Source: Chlamydiota bacterium (lineage in GTDB: Bacteria; Chlamydiota; Chlamydiia; Chlamydiales; SM23-39). From it: DNA of 33,062 nt. The position numbers and the translations under genes are program-made. Location of the stretch: contig JAJFMM010000149.1 of NCBI GenBank assembly GCA_021772165.1, positions 1 to 33,062 of the forward strand, in the 5' to 3' direction. Below are positions 15,351 to 23,602 of the stretch, piece after piece (within the stretch, counting starts at the first letter, position 1; each line of letters starts with the position of its first letter). The notes under the pieces are model-generated. The model was not told the DNA's origin. It did not search any database and was given only the letters and a program-made list of their open reading frames with translations.

Positions 15351-16166
15351 CTAAAAAGAAAATGGAAGCAGATAGCTAACAACAAAAGTATTCATATTCT
15401 GCGGATAAGCTTTAGCCAAAACTCTCCTCATGTATTCAAAGCGAAGTGTACCCCAGACTCCTGTGCGAAAGCCGTAGCGGATACCTAGATCGATCGCTTT
15501 TTGACGAATTTTGGCGTAGCCAAAGAAGTTGAAGGGGTCTAAATGACTACGACGCCCATACCCATTGCTACCGACTGCATAGATAGCCCATCGATGGATA
15601 TCGTTGATATTGGTCTCCCCCATCACAAGGGCTCTCACCCAGGGCGAACCGCGATTACCGTGGCCGACTGCGCCAAATCCCCAGAGCCTCCAGCGCCAGC
15701 TCTCATTAGCATCGAATTCTTTACCCAGAGAAAAATTGAATTCGAAGTCGAGATTCGCATAAGAGGGACAGCTGACGTCGCGCAGAGCTCTAGACGACGT
15801 CACGCGCGTGCTGAATCCCGTGGAAAAGCTGACGGGATCTCCTACGATATCATCACACCAGAGATAGCGTCCTTGCAGAGCAAAGGAGCGGAAATTGAAT
15901 GGCATCTGCGTCGTAGCGGCTACCTGCAGCTCCCCATCGATGCTCCATTCAGGAGAAGGGCAAAATTCCAGCCCTGTATAGACAACGTTTTCATTGAACG
16001 GACTGCTGAGCTGAGGCCTGGCTCCTTGCACCGTATTGAAACGGCTATAAGCATAGCTGCCTAGAAAATGAAATTCGTACACATCGCAAAACCAGGGCTG
16101 CATTTCCAATGCACCACAGAGCGCTGGAAGAGTGACGCCAAAAAGAGTTGCGAGGAGCCGCTTCAT
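15351..16166 (-). CDS. Putative outer-membrane beta-barrel protein (signal peptide, C-terminal Phe)
   Basis: Signal peptide MKRLLATLFGVTLPALCGA. Alternating aromatic/polar beta-strand-like pattern. C-terminal LLPFSF, typical of BamA substrates. Four Cys in the mature part. The ATG immediately follows the trxB TGA (TGAATG), with AAGGA upstream. Confidence 0.6.
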   Translation of the reverse strand: MKRLLATLFGVTLPALCGALEMQPWFCDVYEFHFLGSYAYSRFNTVQGARPQLSSPFNENVVYTGLEFCPSPEWSIDGELQVAATTQMPFNFRSFALQGRYLWCDDIVGDPVSFSTGFSTRVTSSRALRDVSCPSYANLDFEFNFSLGKEFDANESWRWRLWGFGAVGHGNRGSPWVRALVMGETNINDIHRWAIYAVGSNGYGRRSHLDPFNFFGYAKIRQKAIDLGIRYGFRTGVWGTLRFEYMRRVLAKAYPQNMNTFVVSYLLPFSF

Positions 16167-18473: not shown

Positions 18474-18650
18474 ATCTTTTGGGTTATAGCAATATTCCCA
18501 TATATCCTACAAAAAAAGATTTGACCAGCGACCAAGTTTTGAGCTCATTTAGGTATAATAGAAAAAGCCTGGTTCTGAACAACATAATCTATTATCAGAA
18601 ATCTTTCTATGTCGTAGACTATCTGCAAATCAACAAACTGCAATCCTGAA

Positions 18651-21410
18651 ATGCAACGAATTTTACAAAAAGCTTTTGGAATTTACCCCGGAGAGGGCCT
18701 TAAAGCGTTTCGTTTTGCACGTATGGCGATTTTCTGGGCTCTTGGGATTATGACCTTGGAGACCCTCTCCGATGGCCTCTTCCTCGAGAAAGTGGGCTCC
18801 CACTCCCTGCCCACCGCCTATCTCATGATCGCCCTCCTGATGATCGGGATCTCAAGCTTGATGCTCTATATGCTGAGGATGACCAGCCCTTACCGTATCC
18901 TGACAACTGTCATGCTGCTTGGGACTTGCATAGGTATTACGGCGGCCATCTTCCTCCTTGGCACTCCCCCATCCTGGTTTTGGCTGACCTTTAAAATTCT
19001 TTCTAGAATGCTTTTCGTCATGCTGATCGCCTGCAGCTGGACCTTTATCGACCAATACCATGACCTGCAAGATGCCAAAAGGGTCTATTCCCTCTACAGC
19101 GCCGCCTTCTTTTTTGGGAGCATCTGCTCCGGCACGCTCATCAATATGGCTCTGGAGTCGATAGGCTTTCCCTGCATGCTCCTGATCGGCGCCACCTCGC
19201 TTCTGCTCGCTTTTCGAGAAGCGCGCTCCATCGCCCTGAAGATGCCGCCTCCTCATGATGACAGTACGGACGGGATTTTCTCTAGCGACCGCAGCGGTTT
19301 CGGTGCGATCGCCCGCCTCATCCGACGCTCCCCCTTTACGATCCTGCTTCTCTCCTTGAGCCTGACCATTCAGCTGATTTTCACCGTGTCAGAGTTCAAC
19401 TACATGGAAACGTTTGGCCGGGTCATCGGCGGTGGTGCTGAGGGCAATGAGGGAGCGATCGCTGAATTTTTAGGCCGCTGCCGCGCTTGGATCTCAACGG
19501 GCAATATCTTGATGGGTCTCTTCTGCTACAGTCGATTTGTGCGCCGGCTCGGCTTGAACAATGCTATCCTGATCACTCCGATCTGCTTTATGATTGTCTA
19601 TTCTCAATGGGTTTTCAACGATACCCTCCTGATTGCTATCTGCGGACTGATCACAGTCGATGGAATCATGTTCACCGTCGAAGACAACTCCTTCAACCTG
19701 CTCACTAACGCGGTTCCGGCAAAACTCAAATCGAAAGTCCGCATCATCAACGACTCTTTCTTTGAACCTGTCGGGATGCTGATCAGCTCCCTTCTTCTTC
19801 TTTGCATGGAATCTGGAAGCCGGGTGCTCGGATTAACTCTAGCGATTTTAGCTCTGGTCGTAACCTTGCTATTAAGAGCTATCTATGCCAAATCACTCCT
19901 GATCAATCTCAAGGAGAACGCCCTTCACTTTGAGAGAAAAATTAGAGACTGGCTCTCCTCTTTAAACCGCAGAGAAGAGAAGGAATCGCACAAAAATATT
20001 ATCGACGCCCTGAGAAGCAACCAAGAAGAGATGCGTCTTTTAGCCTGTGAAGCCCTCCTCTCTTTGCCGGGCAGCTCTGTTCTTCCGCAAATTCTCGAGG
20101 TGAGCCGCGCATTCGGCACTCCGAGTAGAATCCGCCTGCTCCGTCTTTTTGAAGCGAGTCCTTTCGCCAACGCCCCCCAAGTTCTCGATTCAATCTCTGG
20201 CTGGGTCTCAGAGAGTCAATCTCCTGAGTTTTGCAAATGGGCTAATTTCTACCTGGCAAAGCGCGGCCTGCATCCCACGGATCAGATCGAAGAAGAGCTG
20301 GAACACTCCGATCCGCTGATACGAGCCGCAGCGATTCTCACGCTACAAAAAAGATCGACCTCTCTAAACCGTGCCATCGCAGCAAAAAAGATCGATCTAA
20401 TGCTCAAATCAGAGCGTATCGATGAGATCAGCATGGCTCTCGAAATTCTAGGTGAAGGCTCCTCTGAGAACGTTCCGAAGGCGCTCCCCTTTCTTTCACA
20501 CGGATCGACCCTCGTCAAACGCATCGCCGCAAAGAGCCTTGCAAAGCTGACAAATCGCTCTTCGAGTCCCTACGCGACAAGACTCATTGAGGAGATCGAT
20601 TCAGCTCGCGACAACACCTTCCGCCTCCACTGCCTCGATGCTTTAGGGAACATCAGAGACTCATCCACCATCAAAGACCTTCTGGTTGCCAGCGTCTACT
20701 TCCGCCCGAACGAGCGCAGACGCACCGAGGAGATCATGGTGCAGATGGGGCTCAAAACCGTTCCCCTTCTTCTCTCCATCACAAAAGATATCTCCATCCC
20801 GGAGAGAGGGCGCATTCTTGCAGGGAAAATTTTGGGCCGGCTCGCGCTACCACAACTTCAGGCGAATCTGCATGAGGTGATCGCCATCGAACTAGATCGC
20901 GCCTATTTCTACTTCTATTTTGGTCATACAATTCAGAAACAGTATCCCCTCTACGACCTTGAGATGCTCGAAAGCGCTTTGATGGCAGGCTATCAATCGG
21001 TGATCGACTTCATCTTCCACCTTCTGGGTGCTGCCGGCTCTCTTGATGAGCCTGAGCTGCTCGTGCGCGCGCTGCATAGCCGCAACGCAAAGGTCCAGTC
21101 GCACGCCGTAGAGAGCTTGGAAAAAACATGCAGCCCACGCCTCTTTAGACGAATCGCTCCCTTGATCGATGACCTTCCCGTCGAAGAGAAGCTGGCAGCC
21201 TGCTTGAAACATAAAAAAGATCTGCCCCATCTCTCCCTATCAGATCTTCTTGCGAAACTAGAACAGTCCCCTTCTCTATATGACAAAATTGTAGCTGCCC
21301 GTTTGAAATCTTCACTACAGATGCCAAACTGGAGGCAGGAGCTCAGAGAACAGATTAAACGCTCCGATGAGACCTTTCACCATTTTGCTTACGAGTTATT
21401 GCAATCATGA
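18651..21410 (+). CDS. Fusion protein: N-terminal polytopic NTT(TLC)/MFS-like membrane domain (about 430 aa) plus C-terminal HEAT-repeat domain (about 480 aa)
   Basis: About 11-12 hydrophobic helices. The opening segment (TLETLSDGLFLEKVGSHSLPTAYLMIALLMIG) parallels the nucleotide-transporter N-terminal motif (ILRDTKDTL...GAEAIPFIK). The C-terminal half has repeated helical pairs of HEAT/PBS-lyase type (DPLIRAAAILTL, STLVKRIAAKSLAKL, FRLHCLDALGNIRD, NAKVQSHAVESLEK). Confidence 0.7.
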   Translation: MQRILQKAFGIYPGEGLKAFRFARMAIFWALGIMTLETLSDGLFLEKVGSHSLPTAYLMIALLMIGISSLMLYMLRMTSPYRILTTVMLLGTCIGITAAIFLLGTPPSWFWLTFKILSRMLFVMLIACSWTFIDQYHDLQDAKRVYSLYSAAFFFGSICSGTLINMALESIGFPCMLLIGATSLLLAFREARSIALKMPPPHDDSTDGIFSSDRSGFGAIARLIRRSPFTILLLSLSLTIQLIFTVSEFNYMETFGRVIGGGAEGNEGAIAEFLGRCRAWISTGNILMGLFCYSRFVRRLGLNNAILITPICFMIVYSQWVFNDTLLIAICGLITVDGIMFTVEDNSFNLLTNAVPAKLKSKVRIINDSFFEPVGMLISSLLLLCMESGSRVLGLTLAILALVVTLLLRAIYAKSLLINLKENALHFERKIRDWLSSLNRREEKESHKNIIDALRSNQEEMRLLACEALLSLPGSSVLPQILEVSRAFGTPSRIRLLRLFEASPFANAPQVLDSISGWVSESQSPEFCKWANFYLAKRGLHPTDQIEEELEHSDPLIRAAAILTLQKRSTSLNRAIAAKKIDLMLKSERIDEISMALEILGEGSSENVPKALPFLSHGSTLVKRIAAKSLAKLTNRSSSPYATRLIEEIDSARDNTFRLHCLDALGNIRDSSTIKDLLVASVYFRPNERRRTEEIMVQMGLKTVPLLLSITKDISIPERGRILAGKILGRLALPQLQANLHEVIAIELDRAYFYFYFGHTIQKQYPLYDLEMLESALMAGYQSVIDFIFHLLGAAGSLDEPELLVRALHSRNAKVQSHAVESLEKTCSPRLFRRIAPLIDDLPVEEKLAACLKHKKDLPHLSLSDLLAKLEQSPSLYDKIVAARLKSSLQMPNWRQELREQIKRSDETFHHFAYELLQS

Positions 21411-21835
21411 AACCACTCAGTCTGATAGAAAAAGCCTTCTTCCTGAAAAAGGTAAAACCCTTTTCCGAACTCGCTCTCGATCTTCTACTCGCGATCGCCG
21501 AAAAGCTCTACTACGACGATTACGATGCAGCTGAGCGCGTCTTTGCCCATGGACAAGCCGCCAACCGGATGTATTTCATCATTCAAGGCGCTGTTGAAAT
21601 TCACGATGAGAGAATGCTCCCTCTTTATACAATTGGAGATGGAGACTTTTTTGGAGATGAATCGCTCTTCAATGAGCAGCCACGCAGCTATGGAGCCATC
21701 TGTCGAGCCGATACCGAACTGCTGACGCTCTCTCGCAGCCACCTCCTCTCCATCATCTCGGAGTGCCCCTCTGTCGCCGTTTCTCTCCTCCAGTGCTACG
21801 CCCAACAACTCCCCTGCAGGACGAAAAAGGCATGA
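21407..21835 (+). CDS. Stand-alone cyclic-nucleotide-binding (CAP effector-type) domain protein, 142 aa
   Basis: The beta-roll plus phosphate-binding-cassette pattern is present: MYFIIQGAVEI...GDGDFFGDESLFNEQPRSYGAICRADTELLTLS. Its ATG overlaps the upstream stop (ATGA at 21407-21410). Confidence 0.8.
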   Translation: MKPLSLIEKAFFLKKVKPFSELALDLLLAIAEKLYYDDYDAAERVFAHGQAANRMYFIIQGAVEIHDERMLPLYTIGDGDFFGDESLFNEQPRSYGAICRADTELLTLSRSHLLSIISECPSVAVSLLQCYAQQLPCRTKKA

Positions 21836-22821
21836 AAATCAGAACCAGCCTCTTCCTCTCGCTGCTGCCCACCCTTGCCATCGGTCTTGGGCTCTCCCTG
21901 CCTCTACTCTTCTGCACGCTGCCTGAGAGCATCGTTCCCTATATTCCCCTAGCCATTGGCAGTATCGTCGCTCTAACCCTCTCTACCGCCGTTTCTCTTC
22001 ACATCCTCGCAGGCAAAATTTCGCGTCCTATCAAGAAACTCAACAACTCCGCCTTAGCCATTGCAGCTGGACAATACGCAGAGTCGATCGAGATCCATAG
22101 CCCGAGAGAATTGGGAGAGCTGGCCAACACACTCAACACCATGAGCGAATGCCTCCTCGAAAACATCAATCATCTCAAAGAGCATTCTCAACAAAGAGAG
22201 CAAGCCTATGGAGAAACTGCATGTGCCCGGCTTTTGCAACAGAACCTTCTCCAAAAAAGTATTGATGAGTGCGCCTCGGACGCCATCGCAATTCAATCGA
22301 TCTCGTTTGCTTCCAACGCGCCGAGAGGACTGATCCTCAACTTTCCTCAGACTTCGAAAGAAGAGCATTTCACCCTACATCTCGCAGAGGCCAAAGAAAA
22401 GGGACTCGATGGAATGTATGAGCTCCTGAGTCAATACAAACTCTCAGATGAGCTCCCGATCTCTTCACTCTCTCTTCTGCTAGATCGAGAAAAGTCAGCG
22501 ATTCGCTCCAAAGTAAAACGCTTTCCCTCTCCTCTTTTCTGGTGCCATTCTGAAGAAGAGATTTCCAAGATCAAAGGAGAGTTCCAAGCGATCAAACCCG
22601 GTGATTTTGTCTTCCTGATGAATCACGCTTTCGTCTCTTTCTTCAAGAGTCCTGAGCGCATCTCCCAGATGCTAACAAAGGTATTGAGAGTATTTGCAAC
22701 AGACGGCTTAGAAACCTCTGCCGCGATGCTACAAAAAGAGATCGCGTTTCAAACCAAACGAAAAGACATCCTCGAGGATCTGCACCTGATCTGTCTACAA
22801 GTACTCAGCCCGGAAATCTAA
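21832..22821 (+). CDS. 2-TM / HAMP-domain protein with a degenerate PP2C (SpoIIE/RsbU-like) C-terminal domain, 329 aa
   Basis: I place the start at ATG 21832, giving an ATGA overlap with the cNMP gene stop. Two TM helices are separated by about 9 residues. HAMP segment: ISRPIKKLNNSALAIAAGQYAESIEIHSPRELGELANTLNTM. The C-terminal part aligns by eye to the SpoIIE domain, but the Asp-containing metal motifs are replaced. Confidence 0.7.
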   Translation: MKIRTSLFLSLLPTLAIGLGLSLPLLFCTLPESIVPYIPLAIGSIVALTLSTAVSLHILAGKISRPIKKLNNSALAIAAGQYAESIEIHSPRELGELANTLNTMSECLLENINHLKEHSQQREQAYGETACARLLQQNLLQKSIDECASDAIAIQSISFASNAPRGLILNFPQTSKEEHFTLHLAEAKEKGLDGMYELLSQYKLSDELPISSLSLLLDREKSAIRSKVKRFPSPLFWCHSEEEISKIKGEFQAIKPGDFVFLMNHAFVSFFKSPERISQMLTKVLRVFATDGLETSAAMLQKEIAFQTKRKDILEDLHLICLQVLSPEI

Positions 22822-23602
22822 ACCGCACAGGATCGATTAATTCCTGTACTTCCGGAGAAAGTGCCTCAAACGCCTCTTTCGAAATCTTCATAGCATCCGG
22901 ATTCACGCTGTCTTTAAACCAGTTTCTCAAGTAGGTGAGATAGAGAAGAGGCCTTGGCTCGCTACTCAAATTCGCTCCACCCGCATGAAACACACGATAG
23001 TCCCAAAAATGGCACGCTCCCACAGCTCCCTGAAGAAGAAATTTACAATAGGAAGCCATTTTTAGATCGGTGGGGTACATGAGATGCGAACCCGACCAGA
23101 CAGCGGTCGGACCATTGACAAGATCGACATCTACAAGAGGAATACCGACGGTGATCCCAAAGGGCGGCATGACTCCCCCAAGCGCCCTGAGCTCCTCAAA
23201 GAGCGGCATGTGATCGTCATGAATATGCTGCTCTGCGGCGCCTGGCAGCGCTGTGATTGAGCCCATACTGCTCAAGCGAAAGCTAGAGCCTAAGAGACGG
23301 TCGAAGAGTTTGAGTAAAAAAGGATTTGCATAGATCTCCGGAGCGTCGAAGGGCTCCTTGAACTCGAGCGGTACGTGGTAGCGACGATCCCCTACTCGGG
23401 TTGCATTGAGTATCTCAGAACCATCTTCGCTAAAGGAGAGCTGGCTGAAATAGTGGGCATAGAGCCCCTCAATGTATTCAGGGGAGAAAAGATTGGTGAT
23501 CGATAGGAAACCATGAACTCGGAAGAGCTCGCAAGCTCTCTCGACCATTTCGTAATCCCACTCTCTAGCTTCTATTTCTTTTTTTGTTAGCTTTATTTGC
23601 AT
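22805..23602 (-). CDS. Phytanoyl-CoA dioxygenase (PhyH) family Fe(II)/2-oxoglutarate oxygenase
   Basis: HxD motif in AEQHIHDDH, distal His in YRVFHAGGAN, typical length of 265 aa. Its 3' end overlaps the convergent HAMP gene by 17 nt. Confidence 0.75.
   Translation of the reverse strand: MQIKLTKKEIEAREWDYEMVERACELFRVHGFLSITNLFSPEYIEGLYAHYFSQLSFSEDGSEILNATRVGDRRYHVPLEFKEPFDAPEIYANPFLLKLFDRLLGSSFRLSSMGSITALPGAAEQHIHDDHMPLFEELRALGGVMPPFGITVGIPLVDVDLVNGPTAVWSGSHLMYPTDLKMASYCKFLLQGAVGACHFWDYRVFHAGGANLSSEPRPLLYLTYLRNWFKDSVNPDAMKISKEAFEALSPEVQELIDPVRFRFPG

Follow-up and report, generated by a model that had tools for sequence, protein, structure and literature searches.

NTT transporters underpin chlamydial energy parasitism. 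We have analyzed here three overlapping genes on the forward strand of a 33,062-nt stretch of chlamydial DNA (Chlamydiota bacterium, assembly GCA_021772165.1, contig JAJFMM010000149.1, positions 1–33,062; this whole stretch is referred to as the window), which encode an NTT-type membrane domain with a HEAT tail (open reading frame (ORF) 1), a stand-alone cyclic-nucleotide-binding domain (cNBD; ORF2) and a membrane protein with a HAMP domain and a PP2C fold (ORF3). We tentatively read this trio as a conserved chlamydial operon for a sensor-regulated NTT-type inner-membrane transporter complex, a reading to which we would give slightly less than an even chance. The closest described system is the NTT-HEAT clade of Major, Embley and Williams (2017, Genome Biol Evol, PMC5381601), with members in C. 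trachomatis (WP_009871581.1) and Estrella, which resembles ORF1 in its N-terminal NTT domain, its C-terminal HEAT repeats and the adjoining cNBD gene. In that study, the cNBD gene was found a few nucleotides downstream of the NTT-HEAT gene or fused to it, NTT-HEAT-cNBD fusions were reported from other bacteria and oomycetes, and NTT-HEAT proteins also from free-living cyanobacteria; their function was then uncharacterized and they were flagged as candidates of likely importance. A later preprint re-used the family for phylogeny only, and our literature search on CT234/CT235, NTT-HEAT and HAMP, PP2C or cyclic nucleotides (cNMPs) in chlamydia found no functional study. No third gene was described for the clade, whereas here a gene for a HAMP/pseudo-PP2C protein overlaps the cNBD gene; such a HAMP/PP2C-like third gene is mentioned neither in Major et al. 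(2017) nor in any searchable paper. The NTT-HEAT and cNBD pair is thus already published, and the HAMP/pseudo-PP2C partner and its wide coupling to the pair are new. The three-component form seems to be the usual one among environmental chlamydiae, where the NTT-HEAT gene is part of a fixed three-gene unit together with a putative cNMP sensor and a HAMP-driven pseudo-phosphatase. What was a hypothetical membrane protein thereby gains defined partners and a concrete regulatory hypothesis that can be tested.

ORF1 (18651–21410, 919 aa), ORF2 (21407–21835, 142 aa) and ORF3 (21832–22821, 329 aa), all on the forward strand, are linked by two ATGA overlaps that are directly read in the sequence: the ATG of ORF2 (21407–21409) lies over the TGA of ORF1 (21408–21410), and the ATG of ORF3 (21832–21834) over the TGA of ORF2 (21833–21835). 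The start codons of ORF1 and ORF2 are supported by N-termini that are conserved among homologues (MxxLFxKAFGIY and MK..SLIEKAFFLKK, respectively). The N-terminus MKIRT of ORF3 is invariant in homologues, and ATG 21832 is therefore the real start; GTG 21763, the start in a mechanically generated ORF list, was rejected for this reason. A preliminary description, made from the bare sequence, had given the same three ORFs and overlaps, had assigned the three domain architectures including a degenerate PP2C fold, and had recognized no enzymatic output. All of this held up: Pfam, AlphaFold2 (AF2) and Foldseek returned the same architectures, and none of the three proteins showed a recognizable catalytic output.

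The AF2 model of ORF1, built from 58 homologues (pLDDT 77), comprises two parts. Residues 1–425 (18651–19925) form an NTT (TLC)-type MFS membrane domain of 12 long helices, six on either side of a disordered central loop (residues 198–216), and from about residue 425 to the end the chain continues as an unbroken helical solenoid, a cytoplasmic, all-helical HEAT tail of ~24 helices and ~495 aa (residues 426–919 plus stop, 19926–21410). In a Foldseek search of the PDB, NTT1 of C. pneumoniae (9j3n, 6e-7) and Arabidopsis AtNTT1 (9j3m, 1.6e-6) took the first two ranks, followed by generic MFS proteins and HEAT/armadillo solenoids. A PDB search with the membrane domain as a single sequence gave no match; with a profile of 21 sequences, NTT1 (9j3n) became the sole PDB sequence match (E 1.6e-6). 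In this profile alignment, sWtFiDqyhdlqdaKRvYslys lies opposite FWGFANEITKIHEAKRFYALFG, and the family-invariant segment WTFIDQYHDLQDAKRVYSLY is aligned to FWGFANEITKIHEAKRFYALF of NTT1. In a comparison with the supplementary NTT-HEAT sequences of Major et al. (2017), the membrane domain shared 30% identity over its full length with the C. trachomatis NTT domain (E 2e-55) and 31% with that of the Estrella protein. This similarity places ORF1 within the published NTT-HEAT clade, and its sequence also displays the further features of that clade, namely a HEAT region in the same polypeptide (PF13646/PF02985) and a cNBD gene directly downstream. Fold, profile and C. trachomatis comparison thus concur in grouping the membrane domain with the NTTs rather than with an unrelated transporter family, as had been supposed initially. 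The assignment of the tail rests on Pfam HEAT_2 (4.8e-12, 46.4 bits versus a cutoff of 27.7, three stretches), on sequence matches to alphaRep HEAT proteins in the PDB, and on fold matches to Karyopherin-beta2, alphaRep and mTOR. In the family, mean column identity is 74%, and the C-terminal third is very highly conserved.

ORF1 is, however, no canonical NTT. Npt1/NTT1, Npt2 and AtNTT1 share with it the segment FxFxxQ...(E/D)AKR(F/V)Y and the 12-transmembrane MFS topology, but identity over the fold alignment is only ~17%, the canonical proteins (PF03219) lack a HEAT tail, which in ORF1 spans 495 aa, and the Pfam TLC match of ORF1 remains below the gathering threshold (14.1 bits versus a cutoff of 21, residues 108–167 only). 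The MFS_1 match was below threshold as well, TIGR00769 matched at E 0.079, and many close homologues of ORF1 carry a precomputed PF03219 match. It is accordingly conceivable, though rather unlikely in our view, that the membrane domain is NTT-derived but moves another solute, or nothing at all, such that readings invoking host nucleotides would be misplaced. The low identity to NTT1 and the sub-threshold TLC score would be in line with this idea, as would the S-adenosylmethionine carrier cited by Major et al. (2017) as an NTT-family member with a non-nucleotide substrate, and the occurrence of NTT-HEAT proteins in cyanobacteria that live freely. On the other hand, the family shows no variation in the NTT signature around DAKRvY, a segment that can be aligned to the solved NTT1 structure, and no protein outranked NTT1 and AtNTT1 in the fold comparison.

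As regards the sensor side of the proposed transporter complex, ORF2 is a stand-alone CAP-type cNMP-binding domain without an output domain. It matched Pfam cNMP_binding (PF00027) at 1.8e-17 (63.5 bits versus a cutoff of 27.5) over profile positions 4–88 of 89, and its best PDB matches were the cGMP-binding CNB-D of Plasmodium PKG, PKG I, M. tuberculosis CRP and PKA RI-alpha. Its phosphate-binding cassette (FFGDESLFNEqPRSY) aligns to that of PKG without gaps, GDE...PRS standing opposite GER...PRT, and the cassette Gly, Asp and Arg are each at least 90% conserved among 56 ORF2 orthologues. The position of the canonical cassette Glu is taken by Asp in ORF2, followed by Glu, and the residue after the cassette Arg is Ser in the window and S, G, A or K among the orthologues. 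Judged from these alignments, the cassette appears near-canonical and largely intact, consistent with the initial assessment of the 142-aa protein. The C-terminal helix (ISECPSVAV.LLQ.Y) is very strongly conserved, which suggests that it may serve as a protein-contact surface. We also considered that ORF2 might be a transcription factor of the CRP/FNR type and rejected this, as the protein stops right after the C-helix at 142 aa and lacks a helix-turn-helix; the NCBIfam CRP and FNR models match it by their N-terminal sensor part alone and far under their cutoffs. Control of a membrane transport protein by a CAP-type cNMP-binding domain is known from MloK1, SthK and HCN/CNG channels, and the CNB domains of MloK1 and SthK are significant sequence matches of ORF2. 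In the channels, however, the domain is covalently attached, whereas ORF2 is a separate 142-aa protein beside an MFS-type carrier.

The AF2 model of ORF3, calculated from 60 homologues, reached a pLDDT of 87, with values above 90 in the C-terminal 180 residues (150–325). It shows, in this order, a membrane hairpin, a HAMP domain, a helix of ~55 residues and an alpha/beta domain. The two-helix hairpin (residues 1–58, 21832–22005) consists of helices 3–28 and 35–78 connected by a turn of ~6 residues (29–34), the second transmembrane helix continuing into the HAMP domain. The latter (residues 59–106, Pfam 1.7e-12) leads into the long signalling helix (91–145) within a segment covering residues 59–146 (22006–22269), and residues 147–329 plus stop (22270–22821) adopt a PP2C/SpoIIE-type fold. 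The NCBIfam model for the HAMP-PP2C phosphatase SiaA matches residues 42–145. The ORF3 family thus resembles SiaA of P. aeruginosa and chlamydial RsbU in the succession of transmembrane helix, (periplasmic sensor), transmembrane helix, HAMP, helical linker and PP2C fold, and SiaA-PP2C is a top fold match (TM-score 0.58, normalized to the target). In contrast to SiaA and RsbU, the catalytic aspartates are not conserved in ORF3, the copy in the window lacks a periplasmic domain between its transmembrane helices, and the operon contains no cognate kinase or STAS partner.

The preliminary description had ORF3 down as a protein without an extracytoplasmic loop. This applies to the copy in the window, with its turn of ~6 residues, but not to about half of the homologues, which have a loop of 100–200 aa. 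Roughly half of the orthologues are 418–442 aa long, some up to 525 aa, and in the alignment the extra residues are inserted exactly at the hairpin turn, a location that makes them periplasmic. Several of these inserts gave sub-threshold Pfam matches to Cache/PDC domains, and the insert of the long form is probably a Cache-like sensor. The 329-aa protein of the window is a derived, loop-less form from which this sensor has been deleted; it therefore cannot sense in the periplasm and would report membrane- or transporter-level signals only. As a minor observation, one ORF3 orthologue (locus L065, 9207–10391) is interrupted by an in-frame stop within its conserved GD-VFVVN motif, reflecting either a pseudogene or a sequencing error. 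Seemingly long ORF3 'fusions' in loci L014 and L058 turned out to be artefacts of stop-codon tracing and were rejected.

The PP2C fold of ORF3 escaped sequence models. There was no match at E<=1 to the Pfam PP2C/SpoIIE families (PF07228/PF00481/PF13672), and Pfam, NCBIfam as well as PDB phmmer and profile searches found the HAMP domain alone, with no PP2C among PDB sequences; the fold was therefore established via AF2 and Foldseek. Here, the top 30 PDB matches of the C-terminal domain were all PP2C-family proteins with E-values down to 7e-9, among them P. aeruginosa RssB (7e-9), SpoIIE (2.5e-8), SiaA (7e-8), the RsbU domain of Rv1364c, and RsbX. An hhalign comparison of the C-terminal profile with four PDB PP2C sequences was marginal (E 0.0035 local, 0.0022 global, probability 5–9%), and we used it to map the TDG and DDxT motifs only, the N-terminal half of the global alignment not being credible; the GD motif (S-D150) and the DxxGxG motif (E186) were assigned by visual inspection of the strands in the model. 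In the hhalign mapping, GDFVFLMN-H-A falls on GDxxLLYT-D-G, placing N264-H265-A266 on T-D-G, and E-D316-L-H falls on D-D-I-T, so that the second Asp of DDxT is retained. Residue counts among 96 family representatives then illustrate the fate of the metal ligands: position 150 (GD motif) is Pro in 37/96 and Asp in 32/96, position 186 (DxxGxG motif) is Glu in 86/96 and never Asp, position 265 (TDG motif) varies among Q, S, T, R, N and H, and position 316 (DDxT motif) is Asp in 72/96. D258 is kept in 90 and H318 in 56 of the 96 representatives. Given that the motif positions vary across the family, the canonical binuclear metal site is not under selection, and it is justified to call ORF3 a pseudo-PP2C that has lost the canonical set of metal-binding aspartates. 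Going by these substitutions, the domain would be expected to be biochemically inactive.

An exhaustive HMMER search of 1.84 billion representatives assigned the C-terminal domain of ORF3 to a family of 116 clusters at 50% identity, in which the domain is C-terminal in proteins of 300–525 aa. The small size and uniform architecture of this family fit a dedicated partner. One curious match in this search was a 1954-aa protein (P0262), 27 separate stretches of which align to a 60-residue piece of the domain; this is either an unusual repeat protein or an artefact of assembly. For chlamydiae, a membrane pseudo-PP2C has a precedent in C. trachomatis CT589, a membrane-spanning RsbU paralogue without metal-binding residues (Thompson et al. 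2015). By description, CT589 resembles ORF3 in being located in the chlamydial inner membrane and in having lost the Mn2+ ligands of its cytoplasmic PP2C-like domain. Unlike ORF3, CT589 adjoins rsbU according to the locus numbering in Thompson et al. (2015) and not an NTT-HEAT gene, and the ORF3 family differs from it in being short (300–525 aa) and confined to the trio wherever it was found. Chlamydial signalling would thereby gain a second membrane pseudo-PP2C family. RssB provides an example of a PP2C fold that binds other proteins in a regulated manner without catalysis; the P. aeruginosa protein is the top fold match of ORF3, and complexes of E. coli RssB are also listed among the matches. 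RssB is soluble and receiver-driven, whereas ORF3 is membrane-anchored and HAMP-driven; the resemblance concerns a possible working mode, not family membership.

Support for the trio as a unit comes from its conservation. A genome scan with two peptide patterns, covering one genome per species, yielded 66 loci, all from Chlamydiota metagenome-assembled genomes (MAGs), and recovered none of the named genera such as Chlamydia, Parachlamydia, Simkania or Waddlia; gene presence and junctions were assessed by tblastn and ORF tracing. Over these loci, ORF1 identity falls from 78% to 40%, the lowest value belonging to an Anoxychlamydiales MAG. An ORF2 orthologue directly follows ORF1 in all 58 informative loci, with a 4-nt overlap in 46 of them and some overlap in 56, and an ORF3 orthologue follows ORF2 in 49/54 informative loci, with a 4-nt overlap in 41 of the 45 that have a placeable MKIR start. 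The 4-nt overlaps are thus kept at roughly 80–90% of the loci, beyond chance. In a relative at 61% identity (L001/L002), all three genes recur in the same neighbourhood, and their junctions overlap as well. Among the ORF3 relatives looked up, the five most distant (23–27% identity) all lie directly behind NTT-HEAT and cNBD genes, again with overlapping junctions, but between unrelated flanking genes. As the trio is intact across differing flanks, the conserved unit is the trio and not the neighbourhood. The gene co-conservation anticipated in the preliminary description is thereby borne out for chlamydiae, whereas its idea that the HAMP/pseudo-PP2C gene is a lineage-specific addition is not, this gene being present at 49 of the 54 informative loci and in very divergent chlamydiae.

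The exceptions offer natural variants for comparison, alongside the long and short sensor forms of ORF3. ORF3 is absent from 5/54 informative loci, including an Anoxychlamydiales MAG, with ORF1 and ORF2 retained; at these loci the cNBD gene is followed by acpP (directly so in L037 and L054) or by unrelated genes. The preliminary description had suggested that a membrane/HEAT gene and a cNMP-domain gene may be neighbours of acpP in C. trachomatis too, with which the order in L037 and L054 would be consistent. At a single locus (L067, 5992–7239), an intact 415-aa ORF between proC and acpP consists of the NTT domain only, and the HEAT tail, the cNBD and the HAMP/pseudo-PP2C protein are all missing jointly. 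This locus is a natural reversion to an unfused NTT, and the joint loss fits the notion that HEAT tail, cNBD and ORF3 constitute one regulatory block around a self-sufficient membrane core. Three further observations were made at individual loci. In two distant relatives, a sodium:solute symporter gene (SSF family) starts 3–4 nt after the ORF3 stop (L069, 7546–8991; L073, 6359–7801), which suggests a four-gene variant of the operon. In L070 (1194–3918), gene calling split NTT-HEAT into two pieces (304 and 616 aa) that overlap, which may reflect a frameshift or a genuine separation of membrane and HEAT parts. In L074 (9834–11963, NCBI assembly GCA_024233575.1), a gene for a methyl-accepting chemotaxis protein, an unusual chlamydial neighbour, is found ~3 kb downstream of the trio.

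In the regulated-transporter model that we favor, ORF1 would be the transporter, its 12-transmembrane NTT/MFS domain residing in the inner membrane and its cytoplasmic HEAT solenoid offering a docking platform. ORF2, made in step with ORF1 by virtue of the ATGA junction, would sit on the HEAT tail as a cyclic-nucleotide sensor and couple transport to the cNMP level, with cAMP or cGMP as the candidate ligand and a nucleotide as the presumptive substrate. A direct link between cNBD and NTT-HEAT is indicated by the fusion of the cNBD to the end of NTT-HEAT proteins in other phyla (Major et al. 2017). ORF3 would provide a second, membrane-embedded input, in that HAMP domain and signalling helix drive a PP2C-fold domain that works without catalysis, possibly by binding to the HEAT/cNBD assembly in a conformation-dependent manner, a mode of action known from RssB; the pseudo-PP2C CT589 (Thompson et al. 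2015) serves as a chlamydial precedent for such a membrane component. In this scheme, signals would run from the two sensors to the transporter. The preliminary description had likewise proposed a ligand-gated membrane complex, which might sense host nucleotides or cNMPs.

Several points weigh against this model. Contact among the three proteins is presumed from gene context and from fusions, and 4-nt overlaps are common in compact genomes; at best they are proof of co-transcription, but not of stoichiometric assembly. At least five lineages can dispense with ORF3. The sub-threshold TLC score and the generic MFS proteins close behind in the fold ranking mean that the substrate could be something other than a nucleotide. 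The replacement of the ribose-binding Glu by Asp, together with the variable residue after the cassette Arg, makes cNMP binding by ORF2 not certain. Finally, the strong conservation of E186 and D316 leaves room for residual metal binding or atypical activity of ORF3.

Next to the question of the transported solute, a reversed direction of signalling has to be weighed, which we deem unlikely. Here, the trio would act as a transceptor: NTT domain and cNBD would sense nucleotide or energy status, and the output would leave through the pseudo-PP2C domain of ORF3, for instance by binding, without dephosphorylating it, a phospho-STAS partner-switch protein (RsbV type) or some other target in the cytoplasm, thus tying nutrients to the Rsb/sigma-66 network. 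The nearest folds of ORF3 would be in line with such a role, being those of partner-switch phosphatases (Rv1364c RsbU domain, SpoIIE, RsbX, SiaA) and of the adaptor RssB; the chlamydial Rsb network already includes the membrane pseudo-PP2C CT589 (Thompson et al. 2015), and the HAMP-helix-PP2C architecture of sensor phosphatases is preserved in ORF3 despite the lost catalysis. Yet no STAS, RsbW or sigma-factor gene was seen in or beside the trio at the loci inspected, the restriction of the ORF3 family to the vicinity of NTT-HEAT/cNBD genes points to a local partner, and survival of the membrane domain by itself in L067 suggests that the transport function is primary. A far-reaching version of this idea, which we consider a long shot, would make the trio a phylum-wide nutrient/energy sensor whose HAMP-driven pseudo-PP2C relays host-nucleotide status to the Rsb partner switch. 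If so, a step such as sequestration of phospho-RsbV would couple host nucleotide supply to sigma-66 availability and the switching of developmental stages, and the Chlamydiaceae would have kept the NTT-HEAT/cNBD core only.

It also seems improbable that ORF3 is still an enzyme, that is, an atypical PP2C with an altered metal site (E186, D258, D316, H318) that dephosphorylates ORF1, ORF2 or another protein, which would imply a phospho-regulated transporter. Three of these residues are indeed kept in most and H318 in over half of the 96 representatives, the second Asp of DDxT is retained in the hhalign mapping, and conservative Asp-to-Glu changes at the metal site have a precedent in the chlamydial PP2C CT259 (Thompson et al. 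2015). Against this stand the variable replacements of the TDG Asp, the frequent Pro in place of the GD Asp, the missing Pfam match to PP2C/SpoIIE and the marginal profile-profile match to real PP2Cs, and the lack of a kinase gene in the module. That the trio reflects mere packing and co-transcription, with the transporter, the soluble cNMP-binding protein and the membrane sensor being unrelated and acting independently, is hardly probable: same-strand gene overlaps are frequent in reduced genomes, and ORF1 and ORF2 do persist where ORF3 is absent, but order, orientation and exact 4-nt junctions are kept down to 23–40% identity and across flank changes, the ORF3 domain family is seen only in the trio context, cNBD and NTT-HEAT form a single polypeptide elsewhere (Major et al. 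2017, PMC5381601), and HEAT tail, cNBD and ORF3 were lost jointly in L067.

Turning to the surroundings of the trio in the window, the sole non-coding gap upstream is a spacer of 177 nt (18474–18650, forward strand) between the divergent proC gene and ORF1, which we presume to be the promoter region of the operon. In this spacer, a promoter/terminator scan by consensus gave a single sigma-70-like site (9/12, 18559–18588) that was not above shuffle expectation, and neither the scan as a whole nor Rfam yielded a result above chance. The trio is flanked by the divergent proC and trxB on one side and by a convergent PhyH-like gene on the other, beyond which acpP, fabG, fabD, fabH, recR, bamA, ompH and lpxD are found; this is a typical chlamydial housekeeping neighbourhood. 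The PhyH-family (phytanoyl-CoA dioxygenase-like) gene (22805–23602, reverse strand) points towards ORF3 and shares 17 nt with the 3' end of the latter. A tblastn search found a counterpart in 0/68 related loci, and the gene looks like a lineage-private insertion between the trio and acpP, in agreement with the preliminary description.

Two other genes of the window may be mentioned. A 1059-aa ORF (396–3575, forward strand) had no Pfam match; the GC content of positions 1–5000 is 0.36–0.45 versus ~0.50 elsewhere, and the ORF may be a lineage-specific or acquired gene. A 271-aa ORF (15351–16166, reverse strand), also without a Pfam match, has an N-terminus resembling a signal peptide and ends in ...LPFSF. 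In L001, an unannotated 266-aa gene occupies the same place next to trxB, and the 271-aa product of the window may be an outer-membrane beta-barrel.

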